DNA of 64,000 nucleotides from Fidelibacterota bacterium (GTDB lineage Bacteria > Fidelibacterota > Marinisomatia > Marinisomatales > UBA1611): positions 7,916 through 71,915 of the forward strand of contig JAOHKG010000002.1 in assembly GCA_028101095.1 (NCBI GenBank), read 5' to 3'. A program made the translations under genes and the position numbers. Below, one piece after another: positions 6,015 to 23,100 of this stretch. Position 1 is the first letter of the stretch. The number at the start of each line of letters is the position of its first letter. Under the pieces are notes generated by a model. That model was not told where the DNA came from. It ran no database searches and was given only the letters and a program-made list of their open reading frames with translations.

Positions 6015-6644
6015 ATGAAATTATTTAAAAAACTAAAAAGCAGGAAAGGCCAGTCGCTTGCAGAATTTGCTGTAACAACAGCAATGATGGCAACACTAGC
6101 AACCACTGCTGCACCGAAGTTTTCTGGCGTTGGAGAAGGCGCGAAGGAAAAGAAGACGTATTCGAGTATTGATAAAATTATCAAGTCTGCAAACAATTTT
6201 TATAATGAGAAAGTGACAACAGAAGGACGTGGTCGTTTTCCAGGACAGCTCAAGTATGACTCCGCTGTTCCTGATGGTGGCGGATACAATGATCAGGCAT
6301 TATGCCTTACAAGTCTAGATCTGTTTGAAACGTATGAAAGTTCAGAAGCTTCTAAGTGGGCTTCCATATTTGGTACACAGAATGATGCAGCTCAGACCCC
6401 ATCAGGTAGTAGTGTTAATACTTCTGAAGATCCAGATAGTGATGGATCGTTTACTGAGACCGTAGGAGCAGAAGAGTTTTTAAATGAGTTTGGTGGCAAC
6501 GCAATTAAGAGTCCCTTTCAGGATGGTCACTACATTTATACAGTAATAGCTGGAGGTGGAGCAGGTCAGTCATCGTACTCACCCGTTTTATTTGTGGCTG
6601 ATTTAGAAAGTCCAAAGAACTTTAACAAAAAACTACAACCGTAG
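6015..6644 (+). CDS. Pilin-like protein with an atypical class III signal (G|QSLAEF)
   Basis: 209 aa. N-terminus is KSRKG|QSLAEFAVTTAMMATLATTAAP, with Glu at +5 and a hydrophobic helix. Confidence 0.6.
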   Translation: MKLFKKLKSRKGQSLAEFAVTTAMMATLATTAAPKFSGVGEGAKEKKTYSSIDKIIKSANNFYNEKVTTEGRGRFPGQLKYDSAVPDGGGYNDQALCLTSLDLFETYESSEASKWASIFGTQNDAAQTPSGSSVNTSEDPDSDGSFTETVGAEEFLNEFGGNAIKSPFQDGHYIYTVIAGGGAGQSSYSPVLFVADLESPKNFNKKLQP

Positions 6645-6656
6645 ACAACTAGGAGA

Positions 6657-7100
6657 ATGAAAATGAGAAACAATAATAAAGGTTTTACATTAATAGAATT
6701 GATCATGGTAACGATCATATTAGGAATTTTAGCAGCAGTAGCAGTTCCAAGATACATGGGAACAGTAAATAGAGCAGAAGCAGCAGCAGAAGACGCAGTT
6801 CTATCCGCTTTAGAAGCAAATGCAGAAGCATACGCAATGGAGAAGTTCATGGATACAGGTCGTAAGTCTTATCCTACAAACCCATTTGATGGTGCAAGTG
6901 TAGATGGATATACAACTGGTGCAACATCAGTAGCAAATTCTGGTGATTGGGCTTTTGATGGTACAGTTATTCTTCATAAACGTAATGATGATTCTGTATG
7001 GTCGTGGACTTATACCAGCACGAATGATGCTACAGGTCAAGCGGATGATAGAGGTTCTTTTGGAGCCCGTAGTACTTCATCTGTAAGTAATGTTGATTAA
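6657..7100 (+). CDS. Type IV pilin (probable major pilin)
   Basis: 147 aa. NNKG|FTLIELIMVTIILGILAAVAVP is a canonical prepilin signal. AGGAGA RBS upstream and a strong hairpin downstream. Confidence 0.88.
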   Translation: MKMRNNNKGFTLIELIMVTIILGILAAVAVPRYMGTVNRAEAAAEDAVLSALEANAEAYAMEKFMDTGRKSYPTNPFDGASVDGYTTGATSVANSGDWAFDGTVILHKRNDDSVWSWTYTSTNDATGQADDRGSFGARSTSSVSNVD

Positions 7101-7123
7101 TCATTAAAATATTTAGTTGAAAT

Positions 7124-7167
7124 AGGCTCTAATGCTTTTAACATTAGAGCCTTCATTAAATTTTTTT
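7124..7167 (+). terminator. Hairpin after the pilin gene (probable attenuator/terminator)
   Basis: Perfect 11-bp stem AGGCTCTAATG (7124-7134) / CATTAGAGCCT (7142-7152) with a 7-nt loop. The T7 run at 7161-7167 is not directly adjacent to the stem. Confidence 0.55.
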
Positions 7168-7184
7168 CAAATAGAGTTGAGTAC

Positions 7185-7673
7185 ATGAAATATTTATTAA
7201 AAAAAGGTAACAAAGGTTTTACGATAGCAGAGTTTGTTGTGACTATTGCCTTGATGGGTACGATGATGAGTGTAGTCCTGCCTTCTTTTGATAGTATTAC
7301 ACTAAATATGCAAGCAAGTCAAAATAAAACCAATATGGATATGATACGACAGGTGTTTTTTGGCTACTTTTATGATACACATATGAAGGGTATTGCTCAT
7401 TTACCTCCCTCTCCAACTAATGAAGAAGGATTAATGAGTGAGGAGTGGGCAAATGAAATTATAAATGAAGACATGTCTCTCTCCACTCCAAACGATTTAT
7501 TCTCAGCTGGTGCAGTCCCCAATAATGCAAATGGAAACCCCTTTTCATACGAAACATGGACTGACACTACCTACTTAGGGTCGGATGGTATGAAAGTTGA
7601 CTATTTTGTTCGTATTACTGATATTGATGAAGATAGTCCTTCTTTTGAAGTCTCTTTTACTTCTGCTATCTAA
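7185..7673 (+). CDS. Minor pilin / pseudopilin
   Basis: 162 aa. KKGNKG|FTIAEFVVTIALMG with Glu+5. Confidence 0.75.
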   Translation: MKYLLKKGNKGFTIAEFVVTIALMGTMMSVVLPSFDSITLNMQASQNKTNMDMIRQVFFGYFYDTHMKGIAHLPPSPTNEEGLMSEEWANEIINEDMSLSTPNDLFSAGAVPNNANGNPFSYETWTDTTYLGSDGMKVDYFVRITDIDEDSPSFEVSFTSAI

Positions 7674-7696
7674 TGTAAATATATTAAATTTGGCAA

Positions 7697-8227
7697 ATGG
7701 CCATGAAAATAAAAAATATTCTTAGTAGTATAAAACCCAGCACATTTGCTGGGTTTACTTTTATTGAGTTAGTTATTTTAACTTTAATAATAGGAATCCT
7801 TTCTGCGGTTGCATTAACTAAGTCGAGGGATGATACTAGTAATTTTACAACTAGCATAGCGGTTCAGCAGGTTACAGGAGATATTGATTACTGTAAGTCT
7901 TTATCTTTCTCCAAAAATGATACTATTACAATGGTTTTTGATCTTGAAAATGAATTTTATAAAGTATACACCGGTCATAATAGTACCAGAACACTGATAA
8001 CAGATTTTCCAAATTTTGTAGATAATAAAGTGACCTTTCCCAAGTTTGGGATTAATTCTGTAAATCTATCAAACCTTACATTTTATAGTTCACATTCAAA
8101 TACACAAATAGCGCAAAAAGAATTGCAGTTTCTTCCAGGAGGAATTCCTTTCGTTGGTGGTAATGTGCACGTCAATTCTAAAATAATAACTATAGCAAAC
8201 GAGACAGGAAAGTGGACAGTAAACTAA
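7697..8227 (+). CDS. Minor pilin (GspH/FimT-like)
   Basis: 176 aa. STFAG|FTFIELVILTLIIGILSAVAL. Confidence 0.72.
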   Translation: MAMKIKNILSSIKPSTFAGFTFIELVILTLIIGILSAVALTKSRDDTSNFTTSIAVQQVTGDIDYCKSLSFSKNDTITMVFDLENEFYKVYTGHNSTRTLITDFPNFVDNKVTFPKFGINSVNLSNLTFYSSHSNTQIAQKELQFLPGGIPFVGGNVHVNSKIITIANETGKWTVN

Positions 8228-8706
8228 ATCAAAAAGGATTTACTCTGATTGAAGTTCTCATAATGACAGTTCTCCTAGCTATGGCATTCTTGGTTTTTTT
8301 AGGGTCTCTAAACCTTGGTAGAGATCTACAGAACAAGTCAGAGATAAAAAGTGTGCAAGCAATACTTTTGCACGATTTACAAGAACAAATCAAATCAAGA
8401 AGGTTTGATGAAAATTTAAATACACCTTGGTCAAATAGTTTAGGTCCAGAGGGATCTCAGTCAGGCAGTTCTGAAAATAGTTTATCCGATTTTGATGATG
8501 TTGATGATTTTAAAAATTATCAAATAACGGCATATGCAGATCACCCAGCTTTTGGTGCACAAGTTCATGTTGAGTATGTTAATCGAGCTACAAAGTTCAG
8601 AGTTGTTTCTACAGCTCCCACAGAATATAAGAGAGTGGTTGTGAGCATCTCTCACTCTTCTTTTTCAACTTTAACAGATACCTTGATAATTGGTGCCGGG
8701 CTTTGA
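8212..8706 (+). CDS. Minor pilin (PilV/GspI-like)
   Basis: 164 aa, GTG start. NQKG|FTLIEVLIMTVLLAMAF. Overlaps the upstream gene by 16 nt. Confidence 0.72.
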   Translation: MDSKLNQKGFTLIEVLIMTVLLAMAFLVFLGSLNLGRDLQNKSEIKSVQAILLHDLQEQIKSRRFDENLNTPWSNSLGPEGSQSGSSENSLSDFDDVDDFKNYQITAYADHPAFGAQVHVEYVNRATKFRVVSTAPTEYKRVVVSISHSSFSTLTDTLIIGAGL

Positions 8707-9251
8707 AAAAAATACAATCTGGATTTACATTTATTGAAGTTGTCATCTCCTTGGCGATTGTAGGAGTGATCAGCGGGCTATCCATTTCCATGTTGTTGCA
8801 AGGAACTGAAATCTTTGTTGGCGCTAAGGACGATAGTCATTTAATGAATGAATCTAGAACTGCAATTTGGAGAATTTCTCGAGAAGTGCACAATCTAGCC
8901 AGTAATAACTTTCTAGAGTTATCGAAGAGTAACCGTATTTATCTTAAAGATGCCAAGGCGAGGCAAGTTGATTTCGTTCTCGTTGATGAAAATATAAATA
9001 TTAATAGGAATCAACAGCAGAATGTACTCACTGGATTCTTGGACAATACCCTAACTAATAACTTTAAATATATTAGTAGGGAAAGCATCGCCATAAATAG
9101 CTCAAGCGGGATAAGTGGTAGTGAAGCAAGTACCGTGAATCTTCTAAAGTTAGATTTACAATTTTCTAAAGATAGTCAGAAAATTAATTTAGGAACTCAT
9201 GTTTATCCTTATGGTTTCAAATTTGGAAAAAAAATGAGCTATCATGATTAA
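8703..9251 (+). CDS. Minor pilin (PilW/GspJ-like)
   Basis: 182 aa. TTG start overlaps the upstream stop. IQSG|FTFIEVVISLAIVGV. Confidence 0.72.
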   Translation: MKKIQSGFTFIEVVISLAIVGVISGLSISMLLQGTEIFVGAKDDSHLMNESRTAIWRISREVHNLASNNFLELSKSNRIYLKDAKARQVDFVLVDENININRNQQQNVLTGFLDNTLTNNFKYISRESIAINSSSGISGSEASTVNLLKLDLQFSKDSQKINLGTHVYPYGFKFGKKMSYHD

Positions 9252-10896
9252 TTTCTTTATGAAAAAAATCAAAGATGAATCTGGGATGGCATTGACAGCT
9301 TCTACCATGTTTGTTTTTGTTGTGCTAAGTATAATGGCTTTTTATCTAGCTCGGTTTTCTATACTTAGTAGCGAGAGCGCTGGTCATTATCTACAGAATG
9401 TGCGTGCAAGAAATTTAGTTCAAACAGGCCTTGAGATAGGTCTGCAAACAGTTAGTACCTCTTACTCTTCTTTGCAATCTTCAATTACTGGGAAACTGAA
9501 TAAAGGTACTTACACTGTTTCAGTTGATAATAGCAAAGATGAAGTTAATTCTAATTTAGCTTACAATCATTATTCGCTTTTGAAAAGCACAACGGTAGTT
9601 GGAGGAGTGCATAGGGCCGGACGTTTAATTATAAGTCCTTATCCAAATGCTTTTAATCTTTCTTTATTTTCAGATAATCAAAGCAATGGAACTTTTAATG
9701 CCAATTCTAATAGCTCTATTTCAGGCGACTTTTTTTTTAATGGTACGATTTCAAATGTGACGATGGGAAATAATAGTGTCGCATATTCTAGTTCGAGTTC
9801 TTCTTCTTCCCCCATTATTTTCCATGGATTACCAAAGCCATCCTTTCCTGTTTTAAATCATTCCATTTATACAAATATCTTAGCGACTGTTTCTGGCCAA
9901 TACAATCCCTCTTCTGGTGGAGGGCAAACAGGAAGTGCAACGGCTACGGTTTGGAACCCCAGTGGTGGTCATTGCAATGTTTGTCCTAATGATGCAAACA
10001 GTAATAATAGATATGCTTGCTCTAAAGGGTATGGTGGCTGGTCGAACAGTCATAGTTTTAATGATTTCATTCCAACAGGTAGTATTGCAAATAGAATTAA
10101 AATTAGATTTAAAGGTGCTACCCCTTGTGGTGGGACATGGAATATCTCTCCATCAGTGAATGGGCAAATCATAAACAATGATAGTTGGTATGGTTCGGGA
10201 TGCCAGTGTAATTCCTGTTCGACAAAAGATGTTGTAAGCGCATCTCACACAAATGGTTTTCCGGGATACAAATATGGGGCTAGTAATTCTTTAACTTTTA
10301 GTCATTCGGGTACTCAGACTTGTATTGGGTATGTCCAGGTTATAATAGACTATTCAGCTTCTTCTGTTCCTGGAGTTGCGGAGAATAAATCTATTAATCT
10401 ATCGAGTTTTACGAATAACACGCTAATGCATGATGGTAATTTGACCTTGACTAGTTGTAATATCTCTGGCTCTGGTTATATTCTAGCTTCTGGTAATATC
10501 ACAATCTCTGGAAATACAACCATAGGAGGGGGCGTCAAGATTATATCTGAAAAAGCCCTCACAATAAATGGCAGCAGTTCTATTGGATCTTCTATCTCTA
10601 ACTATTGTGTCCTATATGGGAAAGAGGGTGTTAGTATTCAAGGGAGTACTTTTTTTGGATTAATAATTTCGTTGGGAAATTCACTTTCCTTGACAAGCTC
10701 AACTTTAAATGGAGCAATACTAACTGAGTCTTCAGCGAATACTTTGAGTAATGCAACGATAAATGGGTCTATTGTATCAAAAAATAATTTAAGTTTGACC
10801 TCTAGTAATATAGTAAAAAGTAATTTACCCGATCTTTTTGGATTGAATCTTGGTTTTAAACCTTCAGTTCTCCCAGGGTCTTATTTAGAATATTAA
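9244..10896 (+). CDS. Large PilX/GspK-like pilus-associated protein with a Cys-rich module and a repeat-rich C-terminus
   Basis: 550 aa. DESG|MALTASTMFVFVVLSIM hydrophobic N-terminus without Glu+5. Eight Cys within about 125 aa. C-terminal NISGSGYILASGNITISGNTTIGGG-type repeats. Confidence 0.55.
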   Translation: MINFFMKKIKDESGMALTASTMFVFVVLSIMAFYLARFSILSSESAGHYLQNVRARNLVQTGLEIGLQTVSTSYSSLQSSITGKLNKGTYTVSVDNSKDEVNSNLAYNHYSLLKSTTVVGGVHRAGRLIISPYPNAFNLSLFSDNQSNGTFNANSNSSISGDFFFNGTISNVTMGNNSVAYSSSSSSSSPIIFHGLPKPSFPVLNHSIYTNILATVSGQYNPSSGGGQTGSATATVWNPSGGHCNVCPNDANSNNRYACSKGYGGWSNSHSFNDFIPTGSIANRIKIRFKGATPCGGTWNISPSVNGQIINNDSWYGSGCQCNSCSTKDVVSASHTNGFPGYKYGASNSLTFSHSGTQTCIGYVQVIIDYSASSVPGVAENKSINLSSFTNNTLMHDGNLTLTSCNISGSGYILASGNITISGNTTIGGGVKIISEKALTINGSSSIGSSISNYCVLYGKEGVSIQGSTFFGLIISLGNSLSLTSSTLNGAILTESSANTLSNATINGSIVSKNNLSLTSSNIVKSNLPDLFGLNLGFKPSVLPGSYLEY

Positions 10897-10909
10897 TCTA
10901 GGAGTGACT

Positions 10910-11245
10910 ATGTACAAGTTCTTTATAAAAAATATTTTATGTTTCATGGCTATTGCACCTCTTTTCTCTTCTGAGAGTGAATATACACTTTTTGGCGAAA
11001 GTCGTTATGCTCTATCTGATGGTGATTCTCTTGATGATGTTAGAATTATCTGTAAGAATGATGCCATTCGAAATATGAATCAAAATATTATGATGCTACC
11101 CCCTGATGCAATTAATATTGATTGTCTAGTAAGAAACTTGTTTGATTTGACTTTAGTAGAAGAAAGTATCAATGAAAACCTCCTCTATGTTAAATATGAA
11201 GCTAAAATAAATACAAGCGCCCTTTTTGATACGTGTTCTAAATAA
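10910..11245 (+). CDS. Small exported hypothetical protein
   Basis: AGGAG RBS then ATG 10910 (the track starts at GTG 10904). N-terminal signal-like FFIKNILCFMAIAPLFSS. Confidence 0.5.
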   Translation: MYKFFIKNILCFMAIAPLFSSESEYTLFGESRYALSDGDSLDDVRIICKNDAIRNMNQNIMMLPPDAINIDCLVRNLFDLTLVEESINENLLYVKYEAKINTSALFDTCSK

Positions 11246-11311
11246 AAAACCTCGTTAATTAAGGCGTAAAATAGATCTTATAGTTTTACTAATTTATTTG
11301 TAATATAAAAT

Positions 11312-11737
11312 GTGTATGAATTATCTATCATATTAGTTGCAATTGGAGTAATAACTCTTGTGTTCTCATTCATCTTAATTGTTTTTCCAGAAGCTATATT
11401 AAAATCAGATGAAACTGCGAGTCGCTTATTCCTAACAGATTCTTTTGTAATAAAAAATAGAATTTCTGTTGGGGTTTTTTCCTTTATTGCTTCATGCTTG
11501 ATGTTGTATACATATTTTAATACCAACCTAAATATTTATTTCCTCTCCATTGGAATTGTAGCTTTAATTTATTCTGTGACGTTAGTTTTCTTCCCAATGG
11601 GACTTTTAAAGGTCGAGAGGCATGCAAATAAAATTTATATGACAGATGATTTTTTTTACACTAATAAGAATATTGTTGGCGCAGTGCTGTGCGCTTTATC
11701 TTTCTTTATGATTTACACATTTATGACATTAATTTAA
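11312..11737 (+). CDS. Four-TM membrane protein made of two homologous halves
   Basis: 141 aa, GTG start. The halves align: FPEAILKSDETASRLFLTDSF with FPMGLLKVERHANKIYMTDDF. Confidence 0.55.
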   Translation: MYELSIILVAIGVITLVFSFILIVFPEAILKSDETASRLFLTDSFVIKNRISVGVFSFIASCLMLYTYFNTNLNIYFLSIGIVALIYSVTLVFFPMGLLKVERHANKIYMTDDFFYTNKNIVGAVLCALSFFMIYTFMTLI

Positions 11738-11756
11738 AGGTCTTTATTGACAAAGG

Positions 11757-14700
11757 ATGATTGAATTATTTAAAACGATAGGATTGGATTCCGATCCATT
11801 TACAACTTCTCCTAATGTTGAGAAGTTCTACCCTGCCACACAGCATCGTCAATGCTTAGAAGGGTTAGAGCTTGCAATACGTATGAGACGAGGTCTCTCC
11901 GTAATTCGTGGGGGTATTGGTGTTGGTAAAACGACGGTAAGTAGAAAGCTTATTGAGGTTTTTAAAAACGAGTCCAACACATACAATTTCCATCTTATCT
12001 TAGATCCAAAATTTGATTCGGAGCTGATATTCCTCAAACATATTATTGATCTTTTTGGGATTAAAACTACTGGTGTCGATGTACAAGGGTGCCGCAATAT
12101 AATTGAAAACTACTTACTTAAAACGGGTATTGATGAGAACAAGGTTACGGTTCTAATAGTAGATGAGGGTCAAAATCTTCCAGCAGAAATGATTGATGTT
12201 TTCAGGACGCTTCTTAACTTTGAAACAGATGAATACAAGCTTCTTCAGTTGATTATCTTTGGCCAGCCTGAGATGACAAAGCTTCTGAATGATTATCCGA
12301 ACTTTGAAGACAGGATTGCGTTCAACTTTGAATTAGGCCCAGTATCACTTGAAGATGCAAGGGGACTGGTAGATTATCGTATCGAAAATTCTGGTGGAAA
12401 AAAAGGCGCTTGGTTTAGCGATGAGTCCATTAAAATGATTCATGATGTAACCGATGGGTATCCCAGAAAAATTACTCAACTATGTCATCAATTATTATTG
12501 ACAATGATTGGAGACGAAAGAACGGCAATTGATGCAGAGATGGTCAATCGTGTGACGTCTGGTCAAACTCCAGATGCAGAAAATTTAAAGAAATTATCTC
12601 AAGGCAATAATTATGATGATATTGCTGTAAATAAGCTTTTGGACGTCCTCAGAAAAAAAGATCAAGAAGGAACCAACGCCAAGGAACCGGAAACTGTTGC
12701 AAAAGAGCCTGTGTCGCCAGTCGTTCCTAAAGCACCTGTTGCATCAGCCCCTCCTGCGGAACCTACTGAGGTTGAGAAGCCAAAAGAAATAATTCAGCCT
12801 GTCTTAGAAGAAGAAAGTACAGAGCCGACGGCTCCGCCTGAAGAACCCCCCGTCATAAATGAACCACCCTCTGTGGTTGAAAAGCCAGTTGATTTAGATG
12901 ATGAATGGATTGGGGGCTCTACTGAATCCTTAGCGGCTGAAGTAGAGAAGGATCAAGAGGTGAAACTTGAAGAAAACTCTTCCTTAATTGGAAGCGATAT
13001 TGAAGAGGAAGAGAATGAGGTCCCAGCGTATCAGCAAAAAAGTATTGTTGTTCCTCAAGATCCACTCAATGAGCCTGGTACATTTGATCAAGGGTTACAA
13101 TCATTAAATACTTTTTTTGATCCAGCATCTATTGGTGTGAATATTGATGGAGATCATTTGTCCTCTGTAATGATTAATAACACAAAAGGAGTTAAAACGT
13201 TAATCTCCTATGAATATCAGTTAGAAAAATCATCGGGGGAAGATTTTTTTAATGAGCCCGATAGTTTCTATGAAAAATTTAAAAGAAGTCTAAATCGTTT
13301 AAACGAAAAGTTCTTCCCTATTAAAGAATTACATGGAAGGTCGTTACAAACGATAAGCAACAAATCAAATATTTATTTTTCTCAGAATCATGAAAAAGTA
13401 ATGGTTAAGTTTGTTGAATTAGCTGGGGATGCAAAAAAAGATAAGAAAGAGATTGTTAAGTACACCCTTGGTAAGAAGTTGTCTTTTCCTGTAGATAATG
13501 CGATCTTAAACATCAAGCCGGATAAAGAAGATAAAATTTCAGTAGGTGTAGCAGATAAAAATTCATTACTTAAGGTGACGGATACTCTATCAGAAAATGG
13601 AGTTGATATTCGAGATTGGATGCCTACAGCACAATCTATTTTCAATGCGTATATATGGAACTACAAAGATATAAATATTAAAGGTCAAAATAATATTTTA
13701 TTCAATATTGGTCACACAGAGAGTACCGTTATTGCATGTGAAGGTGATAAAATTAGATCTGTCAATGTTTTGTACTTTGGATATAAAAATTTAATGGATG
13801 TTTTGATTGAAAATAAAATATCAGAGGATCCTGAAAAACTAGAATCTCTTGATGTCCCTTCTACTTTTTTATCGAATCAAGGCATAACAAGTAAGCCGAA
13901 TAAATTAGACAATACACTTAGGCCAACTTTTGATTTATGGAGCCAAGAAATTGAACGAGTAATAAATAGAACGAGAAGAGTAATTAATATCACTGAAAGT
14001 TCTAAAATTCTTGTTTCTGGCCTTGCGGGTAAAATTAAAAATATAGATCTTTTCATCGAAGGGGCAACTCAGATAAGATGTGGTGTCCTCAACCCAGTAA
14101 GAAACCTTACCTTTTCTCCTTTTGATAGTGAGAGGAATTCTATCCCCTTTCATCCAACGTTATTAACTCCTGCGATCGGCGCGGCATTAAGTATTCCTTC
14201 AGGGATAAGTGTTCTGCCAAAAGATCTAGTCAAAGGAAATTATTTTAGATGGGCAACGCGCGTTGTTTCTATGGTTGCTGTTGGTGTTATGTTCTTTGCC
14301 GCTCTCCAAACGTATCAGCTTTTTTCTAAGAACAATCAGCTTAATTTAGACCTACTTCCTGCCTCTATAGGTGCAAGAAAACTTAATAGTGTCAATGAAG
14401 AATTTTCTATTGCGGTTCAAAACCGTAATAATGTTAAGAATCAAATTGAGCTATTAGCCTATGATACGGATTATTTTGATAGGATCATTGCCATCACAAG
14501 ATTTTTAAGTAACCGCCTTCCATCTGAAATTACTTTAGAAAGAATGAGTTTTCAGCAAGGATGGGAAAAAAAGTTACTCCGTAAACAAGGTAGAGCTCTG
14601 CAATCCTTTATTGAAATGGAAGATGAAGACAAGCGGATTGTAAGAATGGTTGGAAACCTAACTGCAAATCCTGCATTAAAAGATCGCTACTTTAATAATT

Positions 14701-14816
14701 TTCTGGAAATTTTAGAAGATTCCAAACTTTTTAAATCTGTTGATGTCATGGAAAAAGGTTCAAAAGCAGATGATGGTCCCAATAATATTCAATATGATAT
14801 TAAGTGTGTTTTCTAA
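11757..14816 (+). CDS. Fusion protein: ExeA/MshM-type AAA ATPase + Pro-rich linker + PilM/MshI-like actin-fold domain + TM + PilN-like domain
   Basis: 1019 aa. GGIGVGKTT Walker A and LIVDEGQNL Walker B at the N-terminus. PEPT-rich linker (about nt 12670-12900). IGVNIDGDHL and LFNIGHTESTV PilM-like motifs. TM segment WATRVVSMVAVGVMFFAAL. Confidence 0.7.
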   Translation: MIELFKTIGLDSDPFTTSPNVEKFYPATQHRQCLEGLELAIRMRRGLSVIRGGIGVGKTTVSRKLIEVFKNESNTYNFHLILDPKFDSELIFLKHIIDLFGIKTTGVDVQGCRNIIENYLLKTGIDENKVTVLIVDEGQNLPAEMIDVFRTLLNFETDEYKLLQLIIFGQPEMTKLLNDYPNFEDRIAFNFELGPVSLEDARGLVDYRIENSGGKKGAWFSDESIKMIHDVTDGYPRKITQLCHQLLLTMIGDERTAIDAEMVNRVTSGQTPDAENLKKLSQGNNYDDIAVNKLLDVLRKKDQEGTNAKEPETVAKEPVSPVVPKAPVASAPPAEPTEVEKPKEIIQPVLEEESTEPTAPPEEPPVINEPPSVVEKPVDLDDEWIGGSTESLAAEVEKDQEVKLEENSSLIGSDIEEEENEVPAYQQKSIVVPQDPLNEPGTFDQGLQSLNTFFDPASIGVNIDGDHLSSVMINNTKGVKTLISYEYQLEKSSGEDFFNEPDSFYEKFKRSLNRLNEKFFPIKELHGRSLQTISNKSNIYFSQNHEKVMVKFVELAGDAKKDKKEIVKYTLGKKLSFPVDNAILNIKPDKEDKISVGVADKNSLLKVTDTLSENGVDIRDWMPTAQSIFNAYIWNYKDINIKGQNNILFNIGHTESTVIACEGDKIRSVNVLYFGYKNLMDVLIENKISEDPEKLESLDVPSTFLSNQGITSKPNKLDNTLRPTFDLWSQEIERVINRTRRVINITESSKILVSGLAGKIKNIDLFIEGATQIRCGVLNPVRNLTFSPFDSERNSIPFHPTLLTPAIGAALSIPSGISVLPKDLVKGNYFRWATRVVSMVAVGVMFFAALQTYQLFSKNNQLNLDLLPASIGARKLNSVNEEFSIAVQNRNNVKNQIELLAYDTDYFDRIIAITRFLSNRLPSEITLERMSFQQGWEKKLLRKQGRALQSFIEMEDEDKRIVRMVGNLTANPALKDRYFNNFLEILEDSKLFKSVDVMEKGSKADDGPNNIQYDIKCVF

Positions 14817-15415
14817 TGAATAAACTTTTTAATAATCATTACAATTTATTTATTTCCATCTCAACGGTGACAATTTTAGCGATAGGAATATGGTACCTGA
14901 CTTTATTTACTAGCCTTAAAACTGAAAATAATAAATTAGCGAGAGATTTAAAGTCTCAAAAATCTAAATCAACTCAAGCCGAAAAAACATTCAATGATTT
15001 AGCTTCAGTCAAAAGAGAATGGTCCGATTATAATTTAGATTTTGAAGATAAGATTAACAGGATTCCAGATATATCAAATCAAAAGAGAATCTTCAATGTT
15101 ATTTTTGACATAATAAAAAAATCTGAAATAAAAGTAGACTCTTGGTCGCCATCAAAATTCCCTGTCGAGGAAAAAACAATATTTATCCCTGATACAAATG
15201 AGGAAATTATGATTTCCAAGTATCCAATAGATATCCAAATTATATGTACCTTCCCTGACTTTGGAATACTTCTAGAAAAGTTGAGGTCTGAAGATACGCG
15301 GCTATCTGTTTCCAATGTAAATATCATAGAAAAAGGTGGCACGGAAAGACAAACAATAAGCTTTATTATTTATACTTATTTCCAAACTGCTTTAACATTA
15401 AAAGTTGTGAATTAG
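14816..15415 (+). CDS. PilO/MshJ-like pilus assembly protein
   Basis: ATG overlaps the upstream stop (TAATG). One N-terminal TM, a coiled-coil-like segment, and the expected position after PilMN. Confidence 0.5.
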   Translation: MNKLFNNHYNLFISISTVTILAIGIWYLTLFTSLKTENNKLARDLKSQKSKSTQAEKTFNDLASVKREWSDYNLDFEDKINRIPDISNQKRIFNVIFDIIKKSEIKVDSWSPSKFPVEEKTIFIPDTNEEIMISKYPIDIQIICTFPDFGILLEKLRSEDTRLSVSNVNIIEKGGTERQTISFIIYTYFQTALTLKVVN

Positions 15416-15426
15416 AATCAAATAAT

Positions 15427-15978
15427 ATGACGAATAGATTAAAATTACTTACAACCGGTCTAGTGCTTTCCTTAATCTTTGCGGTTAATGACTACTATCA
15501 AATGTCGCAGAAACGTCCAAAGCCTAGAGTGACAACAAGAAAGGCAAAACCGAGTATTCAAAAGATTCGAAAGAAATCAAATATTTCTCGTCAAAAGAAA
15601 GTAATTGAAGAAGCCGCTAAATCAAATTTGTCTGCAATGGACACTCATGGTGAATTTTTAGAAATACCTGAAGAAATCCTTCAAATGAGCCAATGGAACA
15701 GAAATCCTTTCATTCAGAAAAAGAATTTGAAGTTGGGTAGTGAGCCTGAAATAATTTCAAATAGAAATTTAAAAGAAGAACAGCCTCGCATGGCTGATTT
15801 TGAACTGCTAAAAATAGAGTCTGTTGCAAAGCTTGATGATAAGGTTTATGTCATCATAAATGGAAATAGATATGAAGAAGGGGATCGTATTGATCGCTAT
15901 ATGATTGAAGATATTTATGATGATAGAGTTGTTTTTCTACTGGGAGATACTCGTGTATTAAAGGGCGTTGGTAAATAA
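15427..15978 (+). CDS. PilP/MshK-like pilus assembly protein
   Basis: 183 aa. N-terminal TM, basic linker, C-terminal beta-rich segment KVYVIINGNRYEEGDRIDRYMIEDIYDDRVVF. Position immediately before the secretin. Confidence 0.45.
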   Translation: MTNRLKLLTTGLVLSLIFAVNDYYQMSQKRPKPRVTTRKAKPSIQKIRKKSNISRQKKVIEEAAKSNLSAMDTHGEFLEIPEEILQMSQWNRNPFIQKKNLKLGSEPEIISNRNLKEEQPRMADFELLKIESVAKLDDKVYVIINGNRYEEGDRIDRYMIEDIYDDRVVFLLGDTRVLKGVGK

Positions 15979-15982
15979 TAAA

Positions 15983-17287
15983 ATGAAGAATCTTTTAATA
16001 ATAATATTTCTTTTTTCTTCTTTTTCTTTTTCTCAAAATAATTTAAATGTTACTTCTATTACAGAGCAGAATGAAGCTGTAAATAGTTTAGATCAGAATA
16101 TGTCTATTAATATGGAAAACTCTGATATAAAAAATGTTCTAATGTTAATCGGTGAACTTACTGGATTAAATATTGTTATCAGTCCTGCTGTAAAAGATAC
16201 GATCACTGCTTCTCTAATTGATGTAACAGTAAAGGCTGCTCTTGATGCAATATTAAAACCAAATGGTTATAGCTACTTTTTCCAAGAAAATATTATTGTT
16301 GTGAAAGGTAGTGATACACAAATGGTTGGAGAGCTAGAAACGGTTGTAGTGAAATTAAATTATATTAATTCAAGTGATTTAATTGGCACTCTTAGTGCTG
16401 TTTTAACCCCTAGGGGAAAGGTGCAACCATTCACACCTCTTGTTTCAAAACAAAGTAATAGCGGATCATCAAATATTATTGTGATCTCTGATATCCAAGA
16501 AAATATTAATTCTGTATTGAAGATTATTGAAACTTTAGATGTTCCGATTCCAAACATAAATATTGCCATCCGGTTTATTGAAACTAATCTAGATACTCTG
16601 AGAGGCTTTGGAATTGATTGGAGTCGAACACCACTAAGCCCCGGAGAATATGGAATCCAAGATTCAAGCACTACTCTTGGAATTAGTCTGGACAATGTCA
16701 CAATTGCAACACTTAATCCACTCCAACTGACAAATGCGCTAAAAATTATGCAAGCTCGAGGCCAGTCAAAGCTTTTATCAAGCCCTCAGGTGACAACTTT
16801 GGATAATCATGAAGCTGAAACGGAAACGGTAACGACTGTATATATCGAAGGAAATATTAGCAACCAAAACCAGCTAGGACAGCAAGGATCTCAAAATCAG
16901 AGTAGCTCCAGCTTAGGTAGTAATATCTTAGTAAACCAAGTCCAGGAGAAAGATATTGGCATAAAGCTAAAAGTTACTCCTAGAATAAATAATGATTCAA
17001 AAATAACAATGCTTGTTGATGCGCAAGTAGAGGCTCTTTTATCTGCTGCAGAAATTGACACTGAAAAACCTAGATCTACAAAAAGAACTGTCAAAACTCA
17101 AGTAACGGTGGTAGATGGTAATACGGCTATCATTGGTGGATTGATTGCCGAAAACACTTTAGAGTCAAAAAAGTTTGTTCCAATATTAAGTTCGATTCCT
17201 TTGTTGGGAAATCTTTTTAAATCTTCTACTATTGAGAAGGAACAACGTGAATTATTAATCTTTATTACACCAACCATAGTTGACTAA
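15983..17287 (+). CDS. pilQ: Secretin (PilQ/MshL/GspD family), short form
   Basis: Signal peptide MKNLLIIIFLFSSFSFSQ. N-domain NIKNVLMLIGELTGLNIVISP. C-terminal secretin hallmark VPILSSIPLLGNLFKS...RELLIFITPTIV. Confidence 0.88.
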   Translation: MKNLLIIIFLFSSFSFSQNNLNVTSITEQNEAVNSLDQNMSINMENSDIKNVLMLIGELTGLNIVISPAVKDTITASLIDVTVKAALDAILKPNGYSYFFQENIIVVKGSDTQMVGELETVVVKLNYINSSDLIGTLSAVLTPRGKVQPFTPLVSKQSNSGSSNIIVISDIQENINSVLKIIETLDVPIPNINIAIRFIETNLDTLRGFGIDWSRTPLSPGEYGIQDSSTTLGISLDNVTIATLNPLQLTNALKIMQARGQSKLLSSPQVTTLDNHEAETETVTTVYIEGNISNQNQLGQQGSQNQSSSSLGSNILVNQVQEKDIGIKLKVTPRINNDSKITMLVDAQVEALLSAAEIDTEKPRSTKRTVKTQVTVVDGNTAIIGGLIAENTLESKKFVPILSSIPLLGNLFKSSTIEKEQRELLIFITPTIVD

Positions 17288-20159
17288 TAGTTTGAAAAAG
17301 CAATTACCTTATATTTCAATCGGTTTAGGTGTCGCTTTATTTGTGGCTTTTTTAGCAGTACTTGATATCTATGATACAATTGAGCATAAATTCTTGGATA
17401 TGCGGTTCAATTCAAGAGGTTTAATTGAAACGAGAGATGATATTGCAACTCTTGACATCGATGTAAGAGCTCTTCAAACAGAAGGGAAATGGGATCCATG
17501 GAGTAGAGAAAAACATATTCCTATGGTTGAGGCTGCGGGCCAACATGGGATGGATATTCTAGCTTTTGATATTTATTTTATCGAACACAGCGAAAGAGAA
17601 TTGAATTATAAATCCCTTCAAAATATTTCAGATTCAGTTGTCACGATTGAATCTGTAAAGAATCTATTCCCAAATCCAGACAATGACTTAGCAAGCGCGG
17701 CAAGTAGTGCTGGAAATGTTTATTTTGCACAAAGCTTTAAGCCTCAGCCCAAAAAAAGTGAAAAAGTAAAGATTCGAACTCCAGAACAAGAAAAACGTTT
17801 GGAAGCGATGACTCGTAAAAAACTTTACAGAGAAGTTGATCCGGATGAATACAAAACTATTTTTGACTTTTATGATGGTGAATTCCCACTGGCTTCTTTT
17901 GTTGATAGTTCAGCCGGTGTTTACTTTTTTCAGGCAAAATCAGATAAAGATGGTGTAATGAGAAAATATCCTCTTATTGGTTTGTACGAGGATAAATTAT
18001 TTCCATCCATATCATTATCAATTGCTTTAGATCATTATGGAACTTCTTTTAATGATGTTGAAATAGTTCCAGGAAAGTATCTTCGTTTTACCCCTGAAAA
18101 ACCAGATGGGTTTGGAAGAAAAATGATTACCATACCAATCAATGAAGAAGGAATGATGCAAGTCAATTGGGCTGGTAATTGGGAAGATGCAGATGGGAAT
18201 TTTGATTTAATGCATTACCCTTATAATGTTCTTAAAGACTTTCAAGAAACTGAATACAGTAATTATGTTCTTGCTGAGTTTAAAAGAATAACAAATATGG
18301 ATTATGATGGAAATGTAAGAGCTGCTTTTAAACCTGCGCTTGGTTTAATTAATGCTGGTAAAAAAGATATAATGGATGCAGCAAAAAGAGCGAATCAGGT
18401 TAGTTCTATTGAAAAATGGATTCTCCAGAACCCGAATGGTACTGCAAAAGAATTTGGGAAGGTTCCGGCATTTGTATTTAATGAAATTAAAAATAATAAC
18501 GTAATAGCCACAGCATTAATTGAAAATTCTGAACAGTCACTCGATGACCTTTTTCGTGAAAATAAAATAGAATTTGAAATTAGCTTAGCTGATTATTCAT
18601 TTGAATCCGTCCGAAAGTTAAAAGAGGATTTTGAAAAAGAAATTGATAACACAGAGGATATTTCAAAGAAAAAAAGTTTTAAAAAGTCCTTAGCCGGTAT
18701 TGCTTTAATCGAACGTAATTATCAAATAATAATTAACCTCAGTAAAAATAATTTAATTACTGAACAAAGACCGTTATTCTTCTATCCAAACTCTCAACAG
18801 CTTTATGCTGGGAGTGTTGCAAAAGGGAATGCTCGTTTAATTGTACCCTTTGAATTCTATGGGAAGAAGTTATACTACGGACTGACTGCTACTGGAACTC
18901 ATGACTTAAATCCGATGCCTTTTAATCCTAGGTACCCTATGGTAGGCCTACACGCAAATGCGTTGAATACTATTCTGAATAATGATTTAATACACGAAGT
19001 TGGAAAGGCTGTTATTGTAATAGTTATTCTTGCTATCGGATTTCTACTTGCTTTTGGCATCCCAGCTCTTACACCAGCTCAAGGGGGTATTGCTACGGGT
19101 GCAATTCTCATCGGATATTCTTATCTATCTTTCTGGCTATTTTCAAATCAAAATATATGGGTTGATTTATTTGGACCCATGTTAACGCTTGTTCTAGGTT
19201 ACTTGGGAATTACCGTTTATAACTATATCCAAGAAGAAAAAAATAAGCAATTTTTGAAAGAGTCTTTTGGTACATATGTTTCACCTGAATTAATTGATCA
19301 AATGTATGATAGTGGAGAGGAACCATCACTTGGAGGAGAAGAAGGGTACCACACGGCTTTCTTTACCGATATACAAAGTTTTTCTGCTTTCTCCGAAAAG
19401 TTATCTGCATCGGACTTAGTATCTTTATTAAATGAATATCTTACGGATATGACAGACGTTCTTTTAGAAAATAAAGGAACATTAGATAAATATATTGGTG
19501 ATGCAATTGTTGCATTTTATGGAGCACCAATTCCAATTGATCAGCATGAATTATGGGCTTGCAAGACCGCCATTAAAATGCAAGATAATCTTGCATTATT
19601 GAGAGAAAAATGGACAAGTGAAGGGGATCAATGGCCTGAAATTGTTCATAATATGCAAAATAGAATTGGAATCAGCTCTGGGCAAATGGTAACGGGTAAT
19701 ATGGGTTCAGAAGCTCGAATGAATTACACCATGATGGGCGATAATGTCAACACTGCAGCAAGATTAGAATCATCGGCAAAACAATATGGGGTTTATATTC
19801 AAATTGCAGATAGTACCTATCAGGCTGTTAAAGATAAAGTTGTAGTTCGAGACCTGGATAATGTGAAAGTTATGGGTAAGAACGAGCCTGTTAAAGTATG
19901 GGAATTGATTTCTGAAAAAGGAAAAGAACCTGACATCTATAAGAAAATACTACCTGCTTATCACGAAGCTCTAGATCTTTACAAAAATCAAGAATGGGCG
20001 AAAGCTATAGAAGCTTTTAAGGCTTCTGAGAAACTTGAAGATATGTTTGGGGGAAGGAAAACTAACCCTAGCCGTATTTATATTCCTCGTTGCGAACACT
20101 ACCTTGAGAACTCTCCAGGTGATGATTGGGATGGTGTTTGGACACTTACAAGCAAATAG
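17280..20159 (+). CDS. CHASE2-domain membrane sensor fused to a class III adenylate cyclase
   Basis: 959 aa. TTG start overlaps the secretin stop by 8 nt. N-terminal TM, long periplasmic region, 3 TM. Cyclase motifs FFTDIQSFSAFSE, KYIGDAIVAFYGAP, MGDNVNTAARLES. TPR-like tail. Confidence 0.85.
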   Translation: MTNSLKKQLPYISIGLGVALFVAFLAVLDIYDTIEHKFLDMRFNSRGLIETRDDIATLDIDVRALQTEGKWDPWSREKHIPMVEAAGQHGMDILAFDIYFIEHSERELNYKSLQNISDSVVTIESVKNLFPNPDNDLASAASSAGNVYFAQSFKPQPKKSEKVKIRTPEQEKRLEAMTRKKLYREVDPDEYKTIFDFYDGEFPLASFVDSSAGVYFFQAKSDKDGVMRKYPLIGLYEDKLFPSISLSIALDHYGTSFNDVEIVPGKYLRFTPEKPDGFGRKMITIPINEEGMMQVNWAGNWEDADGNFDLMHYPYNVLKDFQETEYSNYVLAEFKRITNMDYDGNVRAAFKPALGLINAGKKDIMDAAKRANQVSSIEKWILQNPNGTAKEFGKVPAFVFNEIKNNNVIATALIENSEQSLDDLFRENKIEFEISLADYSFESVRKLKEDFEKEIDNTEDISKKKSFKKSLAGIALIERNYQIIINLSKNNLITEQRPLFFYPNSQQLYAGSVAKGNARLIVPFEFYGKKLYYGLTATGTHDLNPMPFNPRYPMVGLHANALNTILNNDLIHEVGKAVIVIVILAIGFLLAFGIPALTPAQGGIATGAILIGYSYLSFWLFSNQNIWVDLFGPMLTLVLGYLGITVYNYIQEEKNKQFLKESFGTYVSPELIDQMYDSGEEPSLGGEEGYHTAFFTDIQSFSAFSEKLSASDLVSLLNEYLTDMTDVLLENKGTLDKYIGDAIVAFYGAPIPIDQHELWACKTAIKMQDNLALLREKWTSEGDQWPEIVHNMQNRIGISSGQMVTGNMGSEARMNYTMMGDNVNTAARLESSAKQYGVYIQIADSTYQAVKDKVVVRDLDNVKVMGKNEPVKVWELISEKGKEPDIYKKILPAYHEALDLYKNQEWAKAIEAFKASEKLEDMFGGRKTNPSRIYIPRCEHYLENSPGDDWDGVWTLTSK

Positions 20160-20170
20160 AATAAGCTATA

Positions 20171-23100
20171 ATGAGCAAAGGTTTTATACATAAGATTTAC
20201 ATCTTTCTATTTATTATATCTTTCAATGTATGTTTTGGGCAAACATTTGAATTTAGTCAAGCAGTAACCGATTCATTACCTCAAGTTAATGCTAATTCAT
20301 TACAAGTTGGTGACGTGAACAATGATGGCTTCAATGATTTATTTATTTCGGGTTATGATGAACGTCGGTTTGGATTATACTTTGATGTATTAATTGGTAC
20401 GGAATTAGGCGTTCTTTCTCCACTTTCAAATCTAGAAATAATTACTTACCCTGACACAATTGGCGAATTTATGGGAGGTTTAGGTAATATTGCTTTGGCG
20501 GATGTCAATAGAGATGGAAACATTGACACATATATTAACGGTTCTGCAGAATCATATTTATTGCTTAATGGATCAGATGGCTTTGAGTTTACAACTGGGC
20601 TAGAAAGCCGAAGTCTTACATACAGTCATGGGAGTTGGGGTGATGTAAATATGGATGGTACACCTGATTTATTTATGATGGGTGTTGACGAAACTCAAGA
20701 TATTATTTTAAATAAATTATATTTGAATAATGGAGATAGGCTAGAAGAAGATTTTACAACAATTTTTCCCAACTTATTCAATGGTTCAAGTGCGTGGTGT
20801 GATTATGATAACGATGGCGATCCAGATTTAATTATTTGTGGACAGACAGCCAGTTCAGCATCGAGTGTTACAAGATTTTATAAAAATGAACCAACAGGAA
20901 GATTAGTTGAAGATACGAATCAAGATTTCATTGGATTAAAAGCTGGATCTTTTAAATTTTCAGATTTAGATCAAGATGGAGATCAAGATCTAATTATGTC
21001 TGGTTGGAATGTTCTTTTAAACTCAAATGTAACAAAAATTTATAAAAATGAGCCATTAGGAACGTATACTGAAATTGAGTCAGGACTAGACTTTGGTGTT
21101 AGTTATGGATCAATAGAATCAGCTGATTTTGATTTAGATGGTGATATTGATTTTATTATCGCAGGTGCAGATTCTACAGAAAACTTAGCGACGGATGTTC
21201 TAAGACTTAATGCTACTCTTGTGCAGAATAACGGGAATTTTTCTTTTACAGTTCTTCAGAATTATCAAGATGTAAGGATTGCTAATTTCATAGATGTTAA
21301 TTCAGATTTAAAACCGGACCTTGTAACGAATGGTACAACTCAATTTGGTGATATTAATAGTTCATTTACTAAAGTTTATATAAATCAATCAAACTCTAAT
21401 AGTTCTTCTCCAATTGCACCATCAAGCCTAACTGCATTTGCAGTAAGTAATCGAGCTATTTTTACATGGGGTTCTGGTTCTGATGAATCTGATAATTCAA
21501 CTAGTTTAAGATATAATTTGAAAATTGGGAACACTGTAAGTAGATCGAGTCTGTTATCTCCTTCTATAATTTATAGAGGATCAAATGTTGGGCAACGACT
21601 TGTAAGAGAGTTCTCAAATATTCCGCATGGAACATATTATTGGTCTGTGCAGACTCTGGATGCCGCGGGAAATTTATCAGAATGGTCTGATGAAGACACT
21701 TTATTTATTTCAAGGCTTGTGACTTCAACTCAATCACTTCCAGGTGTTTATTTCTCTTCCGCAGGGTGGGCAGACTATAATAATGATAATAAGTTAGACC
21801 TAGCATTGACTGGGATTACTTTTTCAGGAAATAGTATTACAAGTTTATATCAGAACGAGGATGAACTTTTAAATCAAGATTTATCACAAAATATAGATGC
21901 TGTTTTTGGAGGACATCTTTCGTGGGTTGATTATACAAATGATGGGAATTTGGATATTTCTTTATCGGGTTTTCAAATTATAAATTTTAATGGATTTCCG
22001 GCAACCGCATTTTACAAATATCAAAATGGAACTTATGTTTTTGATGCTCAAAATAACGTTACTAATTCTATTTATGGGTACACAATGGGAATTAACGGCG
22101 GATCAAATAATCATTCTTGGGGTGACTTTGATAACGATGGAGATTTTGATTTTGTAATTGGTGGGACAGATTACTACGGACAAAGAAATCTTAAAATCTT
22201 TAAGAATGATGGTGGGAACCTTAGCCTTGATACCACTCAATTAAATTTAATTCCTCTTTTTCCATGTATGGTTAACTGGGTTGATTTAAATAATGACGGA
22301 TATTTAGATCTTGTTTCGGTTGGAGCTGACTCGAATGCGGTTATAAAAATAAACACATACATCAACGATTCATCTTATGTTTTAAAGTTCTCAGATAAAT
22401 GGTCATCAGAACAATATGGTGTAACAGCAGGGGCCTTTGATTTTGGCGATTATAATGATGATGGCTATATTGATTTCTCAATACTAGGCTTGAATAGTAA
22501 CAGCGAGCCCGTATGTAAAATAATAACGAATTCTATAGATGGTTTTTCTAAAGAAGAAGGTCATGAATTACGAGGTTTGTTTAATGGTCGGCCAACTTGG
22601 GGCGATTATGACAATGATGGTGATTTAGATTTGTTAATATCAGGCTTATCAAGTACAGCTGATGGAGGAAGAGATCCTTTTACATCTATCTACTATCAAC
22701 AAAACTCAGTCTTTTCAATTGATGAGACATTAAATATTGATTCTTTAGGATATAGTTTTACTCAGTTTGGCGATTATGATGATGATGGTGATATAGATTT
22801 ATTTGTTTCTGGTTTTAATTCCAGTTCTGATGTTGTTTCAAAGGTCTATGATAATCTAGAAGCGCTAGAAAATAAAAACAATGCTCCGAACAAGCCGTAT
22901 AGTTTGAATATTGACATCGATAAAAAAGATATTCATCTTTCTTGGAGTGCTCCACAAGACATTGGAACGGAAAAAGGCTTTTTTACAAAAGAAAGCGGTC
23001 TCAAATATCAAATTCAGATTGGAACTGAAAATACTAATAATCATAAAATTATTACGGGAAATTATGGGAATAATTCAATTGGTTCGATAAACCTAACTGA

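Follow-up and report, generated by a model that had tools for sequence, protein, structure and literature searches.

A gene at positions 11757-14816 (+ strand) of the 64,000-nucleotide stretch of contig JAOHKG010000002.1 analysed here (the window; Fidelibacterota bacterium, assembly GCA_028101095.1) is confirmed to be a single-chain fusion of a MshM/ExeA-type AAA ATPase to a PilM-PilN scaffold. The ancestral state is shown by relatives in which the same modules are encoded by two adjacent genes, often overlapping by 8 nt, one for a ~275-aa AAA protein and one for a protein that joins a helix motif, a linker, PilM and PilN. The existence of this split state in the orthologous operon is new.

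The gene is one 1019-aa reading frame, initiated by ATG and with zero internal stops, in agreement with the single polypeptide proposed by the original prediction, a reading made from the sequence alone. The domain order proposed there (ExeA/MshM-type AAA, linker, PilM, transmembrane (TM) helix, PilN-like tail) is borne out by profiles, predicted fold and topology. The motifs quoted in support were found where they had been placed, both in the ATPase (GGIGVGKTT, aa 52-60; LIVDEGQ, aa 133-139; IIFGQPEM, aa 166-173) and in the PilM region (IGVNIDGD, aa 459-466; LFNIGHTES, aa 648-656). The parts of the protein are as follows.

11757-12581, + strand: MshM/ExeA/GspA-type AAA ATPase domain (aa 1-275), assigned from AAA_22, TIGR03015, BLASTP to MshM and identity to standalone AAA proteins; motifs are Walker A (G52-T60), Walker B (D136-E137), FGQPEM (aa 168-173) and GYPRKI (aa 234-239).
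12582-12656, + strand: fusion junction (~aa 275-288) and helix motif IAVNKLLDVLRK (aa 289-300, nt 12621-12656).
12657-13076, + strand: hypervariable, acidic, Pro/Glu/Val-rich linker, predicted to be disordered (aa 301-440), assigned from conservation, predicted local distance difference test (pLDDT) and charge.
13089-14216, + strand: PilM-like cytoplasmic domain of the actin/FtsA fold (aa 445-820), assigned from a family profile against the Protein Data Bank (PDB), Foldseek and PilM_2.
14205-14324, + strand: PilN-type N-terminal motif ISVLP (aa 817-821), basic FRWATR and TM helix (aa 832-856).
14325-14813, + strand: PilN-like periplasmic part (aa 857-1019), a coiled-coil helix followed by beta-beta-alpha-beta-beta, assigned from the AlphaFold2 model and PilN matches.

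More than 115 full-length homologues (930-1100 aa, 35-98% identity) were found in the protein database, and 116 database homologues longer than 900 aa could be aligned end to end. They carry no label beyond 'AAA family ATPase' or 'hypothetical'; where an organism is stated, it is Candidatus Neomarinimicrobiota. A scan of one genome per species of the Genome Taxonomy Database (GTDB) yielded 41 loci from Marinimicrobia, including a few that had been binned as archaea. The AAA and PilMN halves share a frame in 41/41 of these loci, of which 30 hold complete open reading frames (ORFs; 936-1057 aa), 11 are still open where the contig ends and 0 are split. A comparison of fused and split homologues was one of the checks originally proposed; by it the fusion is not peculiar to one genome but fixed in a whole Marinimicrobia clade.

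It is extremely unlikely that separate AAA and PilM-PilN genes were joined by an assembly or sequencing artefact, through a stop or frameshift overlooked in the low-complexity linker. The linker is hypervariable, 11 of the 41 related contigs end within the gene, and in one metagenome contig (L001) an in-frame stop lies 42 codons ahead of the called PilMN start and 18 nt from the contig end. However, the same frame recurs in 30 complete loci, independent of one another and drawn from different species and studies, with C-terminal-half identities of 25-100%, more than 115 protein clusters hold the fusion, and true split relatives have their stop before the motif helix, not within the linker. Because the frame is conserved across homologues and loci, the missed stop or frameshift around 12600-13000 that had been a concern at the outset is excluded.

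The 11 species-representative contigs that stop inside the gene do so mostly in or just past the AAA domain or in the linker, which may reflect assembly breaks at the hypervariable sequence or strain heterogeneity. Contig L001 (1-143) reads as an in-frame stop, 41 codons of acidic linker-like sequence and then the called PilM-PilN start; this stop could be a secondary re-split of a fused gene or a sequencing error. Two proteins considered as split-state candidates (P0121 and P0122) were uninformative, with contigs that end 24-143 nt upstream and, in L001, the stop just described.

A phmmer search with the C-terminal half against 1.84 billion representatives gave 95 matches, which purpose-built domain hidden Markov models sorted into AAA-fused and AAA-less PilM-PilN proteins. 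Many of the AAA-less proteins begin with ELATNRLL[DE][IL]LR near the N-terminus, followed by a long acidic linker. A ~275-aa AAA_22 gene lies directly upstream of the motif-bearing PilM-PilN gene in 5/5 loci examined.

L063/L064 (query P0127): AAA 9184-10008, PilMN 10001-12079, 8-nt overlap ATGCCTAA; orthologous operon on an outgroup contig.
L065 (query P0146): AAA and PilMN with an 8-nt overlap; KSB1, assigned by homology.
L068 (query P0175): AAA and PilMN with an 8-nt overlap; KSB1.
L066 (query P0157): AAA and PilMN with an 18-nt gap; second Marinimicrobia pilus locus, with two PilT-like genes and a prepilin peptidase.
L067 (query P0180): AAA and PilMN with a 25-nt gap.

Among control loci with motif-less PilM-PilN fusions, an AAA gene was directly upstream in 0/3; the control L069 shows the classical order of the mannose-sensitive haemagglutinin (MSH) system, PilMN-PilO-x-secretin-AAA-TPR-MshE (TPR, tetratricopeptide repeat). 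The split pairs of KSB1, the outgroup contig and the second Marinimicrobia locus share with the window gene its modules, their order, the motif and the linker, as well as the PilO, small-protein and secretin genes downstream, and differ from it in being two genes separated by an 18-25-nt gap or joined by the 8-nt overlap. Their AAA proteins are 40-48% identical to the window domain. In the L063 operon the order is pilins, 550-aa protein, 141-aa membrane protein, AAA, PilMN, PilO, small protein and secretin, followed by CHASE2 cyclase, FG-GAP and TPR genes, with identities to the window (secretin 51%, cyclase 41%) below the within-clade values. That the modules are separate genes elsewhere, as originally stated for other systems, is thereby demonstrated in the orthologous operon itself.

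Neighbour-joining places the fused AAA domains in a monophyletic group (48/48), to which the split ones are sister groups. Since relatives carry the split pair with the same motif and linker, the window gene is a lineage-specific fusion of a coupled gene pair. A single event merged the translationally coupled genes at a junction around aa 275-288: one Marinimicrobia clade lost the stop/start overlap, and the reading frames became one, with all motifs kept and Walker A and B intact. The junction is thus upstream of the linker and not within it, and the standalone AAA protein of L063 terminates where ~aa 277 of the fusion aligns. A word-index search with the split-state protein P0127 returned 3 proteins. 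Across the fetched sets that were scanned, ELATNRLLxxLR occurs inside the first 60 residues of 44/83 proteins longer than 500 aa.

The assignment of the N-terminal ~270 aa to an ExeA/GspA/MshM module proved sound. The domain belongs to Pfam AAA_22 (E 8e-17, 62.2 bits, cut-off 27) and is 28.5-29% identical to Aeromonas MshM across 270 aa (BLASTP, E 7e-36). This reference came from a tblastn search of plasmid records that matched a mislabelled Aeromonas caviae chromosome, inside its MSHA locus. There the AAA gene is located between the MshL and the TPR/MshE genes; MshL passes TIGR02519 (279, cut-off 250), a TPR gene is present and MshE bears the cyclic di-GMP (c-di-GMP) motif. The P-loop signatures are complete, Walker A (GxxGxGK[TS]) reading GGIGVGKTT and Walker B (hhhhDE) reading LIVDEGQ, and residues G52-T60, D136 and E137 are invariant among 48 homologues. 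The domain is also the best-conserved part of the protein (column conservation ~0.9), and one homologue (P0005) is labelled by its JGI source 'type II secretory pathway predicted ATPase ExeA'. A match to TIGR03015 (E 1.5e-47, 162.3 bits) stays under the equivalog cut-off of 324.5, which places the domain outside the XrtA/PEP-CTERM ATPases; Aeromonas MshM likewise falls short at 232.6 bits, and the match reflects a shared superfamily only. Nor is the protein a GspA/ExeA proper, since no match to PF01471 or a related family was found and its periplasmic part is PilN-like.

E. coli K-12 GspA was tried as an AAA reference, gave zero BLASTP similarity and was replaced by Aeromonas MshM; its gene (L061:3930-5399), annotated 'cryptic', has no evident Walker A at the aligned position. 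The nearest non-Marinimicrobia relatives of the AAA domain in the genome scan, from Acidobacteria/Pyrinomonadaceae, are standalone proteins outside any pilus locus and were set aside as not relevant.

Following the junction, residues A290, V291, N292, K293, L294, L295, V297 and L298 of IAVNKLLDVLRK are at least 90% conserved. The motif is helical by prediction and matches the extreme N-terminus (ELATNRLLxxLR) of split-state PilM-PilN proteins. A Pro/Glu/Ala/Val linker of ~100 aa had been placed at nt ~12670-12900; it is real, but extends over aa 301-440 (nt 12657-13076). It contains 21% Glu, 16% Pro and 11% Val, has a net charge of -26, varies greatly in length and sequence (gap-rich, column conservation 0.06-0.4) and is predicted by AlphaFold to be disordered (pLDDT <50 for aa 272-431). 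Within it lies a DDEWIGG island (aa 381-387, nt 12897-12917; consensus DD[DE]WIGG), whose I385 and G386 are invariant in 48 sequences and which looks like a short linear binding motif for a putative partner. Non-fused relatives have similar linkers, some of them with an E[DE]LIG island at a comparable place, and the Pro/Glu linker is an ancestral trait of the PilM-PilN half, not a scar of the fusion.

For the actin-fold region, predicted to be PilM/MshI-like, support comes from the family and from structure. A profile of 117 family members searched against the PDB matched Myxococcus xanthus PilM (3jc8, E 1.7e-18), Thermus PilM (2ych, E 2.8e-9) and Pseudomonas aeruginosa PilM (~1e-4), with GspL at just 0.055. 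An AlphaFold model of aa 431-1019 (mean pLDDT 83.9) had PilM structures as its ten best Foldseek matches in the PDB (E 8e-19 to 8e-17, target TM 0.62-0.78), followed by FtsA and then the GspL cytoplasmic domain (E 3e-8 to 1e-7). The modelled fold is two-lobed and actin/FtsA-like, with solved PilM structures nearest to it. The full-length AlphaFold model was excluded from the fold search and from contact inference on account of its low-confidence AAA domain and linker. PilM_2 (PF11104) is matched by 23/48 family members at E<0.01. The window protein alone gives weak matches to the NF045709 Amuc_1101 PilM-like family (E 1.6e-9), to TIGR01175 (E 0.0019) and to T2SSL (E 0.027). The putative phosphate-2 position reads N/H-I-G in place of D-I-G. 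BLASTP of the C-terminal half against the ORF at the Aeromonas mshI position was not significant, the ORF call in this GC-rich DNA being uncertain.

The predicted TM helix is plain, aa 832-856 being a single strong hydrophobic segment and the sole Kyte-Doolittle window-19 peak clearly in the TM range. The ISVLP motif before it, which we take to be comparable to INLLP of PilN, ends in P821, and this residue and R831 are conserved in the family. PilN and PilO have a long helix ahead of a beta-beta-alpha-beta-beta domain, and in the AlphaFold2 model the tail has the TM helix within one long helix and then beta-beta-alpha-beta-beta (pLDDT ~75-85). Its organisation is that of bitopic PilN: a short cytoplasmic motif, one TM segment, a coiled coil and a ferredoxin-like domain, with a PilO gene next. 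Topology and predicted fold agree with the PilN-like tail originally proposed; the sequence match does not reach threshold (PF05137, 15.9 bits, E 0.014, cut-off 22.8). Sub-threshold PilN matches (E<=1) recur in 16/20 family tails, with a best E of 4.7e-5, and no other family is recurrent. A tail profile searched against PDB sequences found no PilN and gave chance-level matches only, such as the IF3 C-domain (E 0.05). The PilN tail is the weakest-supported part of the assignment.

The fusion gene lies in a complete single-locus type IV filament machine, whose genes are on one strand within 17 kb of the window. Nearly all genes up to ~60 kb are on the + strand, and G+C is 31-37%. Its members and flanking genes are listed below.

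334-708: single-domain response regulator.
705-1499, + strand: prepilin peptidase.
1501-3165, + strand: MshE-type assembly ATPase, passing the c-di-GMP motif model NF053729 (40.2, cut-off 38).
3146-4603, + strand: sigma-54 activator.
4572-5831, + strand: platform protein, GspF/PilC.
6015-9251, + strand: six pilin-like genes.
9244-10896: 550-aa protein, no family match.
10904-11245: small ORF of 113 aa, no family match.
11312-11737, + strand: 141-aa membrane protein with two ~70-aa repeats, no family match.
14804-15415, + strand: PilO-like partner (Pfam PilO E 4.2e-5, 24.1 bits, cut-off 22), syntenic.
15427-15978, + strand: 183-aa protein anchored by a TM segment, with a small beta domain at its C-terminus, a candidate secretin connector like PilP, GspB or the homology-region (HR) domain of GspC.
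15968-17287, + strand: short secretin of 439 aa with N0/STN and Secretin domains (Pfam Secretin E 4e-41, STN, GspD N0).
17280-20159: CHASE2 cyclase (adenylate/guanylate).
20171-24262: FG-GAP protein of 1363 aa with a weak C-terminal sorting signal of the type IX secretion system (T9SS; TIGR04183, 16.6, cut-off 23).
24259-26997: PorV-TPR protein of 912 aa with an N-terminal PorV/PorQ-family barrel (95.9, cut-off 90) and C-terminal TPR repeats.

The block from the 141-aa protein to the FG-GAP protein is syntenic across the clade. In almost every Marinimicrobia locus, and also in the split-state L063, the gene for the 141-aa protein is directly upstream of the fusion or AAA gene. PilO begins before the fusion gene has ended, with 13 nt in common. 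The gene for the 183-aa protein keeps its place between PilO and secretin; the protein has weak matches to T2SSB (E 4e-4), NF037978 GspB (0.002) and the SctD C-terminus (0.0012). The pilins match by their N-terminal helix only, with GspG best (E 3.9e-12), and the secretin stays under all equivalog cut-offs (GspD 184.6 against 351, PilQ 184 against 284, MshL (TIGR02519) 95.1 against 250.2). CHASE2 cyclase, FG-GAP and PorV-TPR genes are always downstream of the secretin in related loci, which suggests that the filament or secretion system is linked with cyclic-nucleotide signalling and T9SS-like surface proteins. The 64-kb window has neither a PilT-like gene nor a second ExeA-like one.

The locus was compared with the TXSScan model of Denise et al. 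2019 (mandatory: mshA, mshE, mshG, mshL, mshM), judged with Pfam/NCBIfam models. It has MshE with an N-terminal c-di-GMP motif, a MshM-like ATPase and a GspF/PilC-type platform in a single locus. An MshL-type secretin and a MshA-type pilin were not found, the secretin having better scores with the GspD and PilQ models. We class the system as MSH-like on the sequence hallmarks of its MshE and MshM; it is not certified as MSH, type II secretion system (T2SS) or type IVa pilus, because the secretin and pilins reach no equivalog cut-off.

An unlikely alternative would make the C-terminal half a subunit of GspL type and the locus a T2SS exporting folded proteins, for example the FG-GAP protein, with the AAA domain acting like GspA in secretin assembly through the cell wall. 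GspL has the same plan of cytoplasmic actin-like domain, TM helix and ferredoxin-like domain, and to this can be added the weak T2SSL match and the GspL cytoplasmic domains in the Foldseek list, the weak GspB matches of the 183-aa protein, GspG as the best pilin match, the single-locus organisation, the window's lack of a PilT-like ATPase and the large FG-GAP and TPR/PorV genes that always follow. Yet PilM is by far the better match, both by profile (E 1.7e-18, against 0.055 for GspL) and by structure (E ~1e-18 against 1e-8, over the full two-lobed fold). Moreover, the equivalog cut-offs for GspC, GspK, GspG and GspD are all missed, the assembly ATPase bears an MshE-type c-di-GMP motif and a peptidoglycan-binding domain is absent.

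Taken together, we favour, with a probability of roughly 70%, a model in which the fusion gene encodes the inner-membrane alignment subunit of an MSH-like filament machine, with an accessory MshM/ExeA-type ATPase held covalently at its N-terminus. The AAA module would hang on a flexible tether of ~140 residues beneath the cytoplasmic PilM ring. The chain from AAA through PilM, TM helix, PilN, PilO and the HR-domain protein to the secretin N0 domain would follow the logic of GspA (AAA-TM-periplasm), GspB (HR) and secretin, a logic described together with natural GspAB fusions and the HR fold common to PilP and GspC (PMC9239104). As the chain would share this logic, nucleotide-dependent changes in the AAA domain would influence how the alignment complex and secretin are assembled or which state they are in, or how the MshE motor is recruited; the module itself would not polymerise pilins. 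The fusion would fix 1:1 stoichiometry and co-localisation of partners that presumably already interact in split systems. Because relatives encode the pair as adjacent, overlapping genes, the data suggest that the ATPase works at the PilM-PilN scaffold, and secretin or alignment-complex assembly, gating and motor recruitment are candidates for its job. In the MSH detection model, mshM is a mandatory gene (PMC6668835).

Several observations weigh against this model. The genetic data in the literature speak against the ATPase having a simple, essential part in assembly (PMC4624765, PMC6321873). In V. cholerae, deletion of mshM does not reduce surface MSHA pili (PMC4624765), and the AAA partner may therefore be dispensable or regulatory. 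In P. aeruginosa, deleting the ExeA-like gene next to pilMNOPQ lowers piliation and leaves PilQ multimers unaffected (PMC6321873), which argues against a simple role in secretin multimerisation. The window protein meets no curated PilM threshold, having no match to PF11104 (27 bits) at E<=1 and scoring 17.3 bits against 133 on TIGR01175, and its tail lies below the PilN cut-off; the HR-like assignment of the 183-aa protein is likewise weak and putative. In the full-length AlphaFold model the AAA domain is of low confidence (pLDDT 41-75), and the motif helix and DDEWIGG island are placed without confident docking, so no intramolecular contact is supported. The adjacency comparison is limited to 5 + 3 loci. 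Finally, the host organisms are uncultured and the family is known from sequence alone.

The same genetics bear on a further reading, also rather improbable in our judgement, in which the AAA domain is not a secretin-assembly factor but a regulatory or retraction-type energy source in the PilM ring, replacing PilT or gating MshE on cyclic AMP or c-di-GMP signals from the co-encoded cyclase. Transposon insertions in V. cholerae mshM and mshI both suppress a c-di-GMP-linked motility phenotype while pili are kept (PMC4624765), and the P. aeruginosa ExeA-like mutant has fewer pili and normal PilQ multimers (PMC6321873). Consistent with such a role, the window has no PilT, a CHASE2 cyclase gene always accompanies the system, the c-di-GMP motif is present in MshE and the DDEWIGG island suggests a further binding partner. 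For ExeA-type AAA proteins, on the other hand, no action on pilins or platform proteins is known, and a PilT gene may sit elsewhere in the genome, the second Marinimicrobia locus having two.

More doubtful still is the idea that the AAA domain forms a built-in second ATPase layer, with one copy per PilM forming or feeding a ring beneath that of PilM, docking by way of the ATNRLLxxLR helix and DDEWIGG, and coupling ATP turnover through PilN, PilO and the HR protein to secretin opening or filament dynamics. If this were true, an ExeA-type AAA protein would be an integral, energy-transducing part of a type IV filament machine, possibly compensating for the PilT absent from the locus, and the job of MshM, PA5037 and periplasm-less GspA proteins generally would be revealed.

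The favoured alignment-subunit model can be set beside known systems. MshM (V. cholerae VC0403; Aeromonas MshM) shares the ~270-aa AAA_22 domain, the GxxGxGKT, DE[GA]Q, FGQPE and PRxI motifs, a TIGR03015 score below cut-off and a locus with MshE-type c-di-GMP-binding ATPase and secretin. Unlike the window domain, which is fused to and ahead of the MshI equivalent, it is free-standing and encoded after mshL (order I-J-K-L-M-N-E). In GspA/ExeA with GspB, a cytoplasmic AAA domain is likewise joined by a single TM helix to a periplasmic domain and, by way of an HR-domain protein, onward to secretin N0, and fusions between partners in this chain are known, as in natural GspAB (PMC9239104). The window protein differs from GspA/ExeA in lacking a periplasmic cysteine-peptidase-like or PF01471 domain, in its intercalated PilM domain and in its PilN-like periplasmic part. 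PilM-PilN single chains (MshI, GspL-like and the Amuc_1101 family), several of which were among the homologues of the C-terminal half, have the same actin-like domain, one TM helix and ferredoxin-like domain followed by PilO; they have no N-terminal AAA, and the window family adds the N-terminal motif and the long acidic linker. P. aeruginosa PA5037 (PA14_66580), compared by description and not by sequence, is an ExeA-like ATPase gene linked to pilMNOPQ that affects piliation (PMC6321873), but is a separate gene of other architecture.

A literature search for an ExeA and PilM fusion found no account of this architecture, which is a new variant assembled from known parts and a clue to the function of MshM/ExeA-like ATPases. 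ATPases of the ExeA/GspA/MshM type are a hallmark of MSH pili and many T2SS, and their mechanism is poorly understood, chiefly for versions without a periplasmic domain. Because of the fixed fusion, the split, translationally coupled operon and the common junction motif, PilM, the cytoplasmic face of the alignment complex, is the indicated site of their action. Elements that can be tested are the motif helix, DDEWIGG and the Walker motifs. In Marinimicrobia (SAR406), an abundant ocean phylum, the fusion to PilM-PilN is evolutionarily fixed, and a complete, conserved single-locus filament or secretion machine is associated with large surface proteins and a CHASE2 cyclase. The database annotation, now just 'AAA family ATPase', can be corrected.

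Some features of neighbouring genes can be added. The sigma-54 enhancer-binding protein (3146-4603), whose gene lies between and overlaps those of the MshE-type ATPase and the platform protein, has no Pfam match in its first ~147 residues and no detected receiver domain. The first pilin-like gene (6015-6644, 209 aa) has the prepilin junction G|QSLAEF, not G|FTLIE, and no Pfam N_methyl match; it is kept at the head of the pilin block in related loci, with 39-74% identity. Four hydrophobic helices are predicted in the 141-aa membrane protein. A tRNA scan of the window found none. Downstream, at 29385-32684, is a 1099-aa gingipain-like C25 peptidase whose propeptide, catalytic and Ig-like domains are joined by a type I dockerin domain at the C-terminus.

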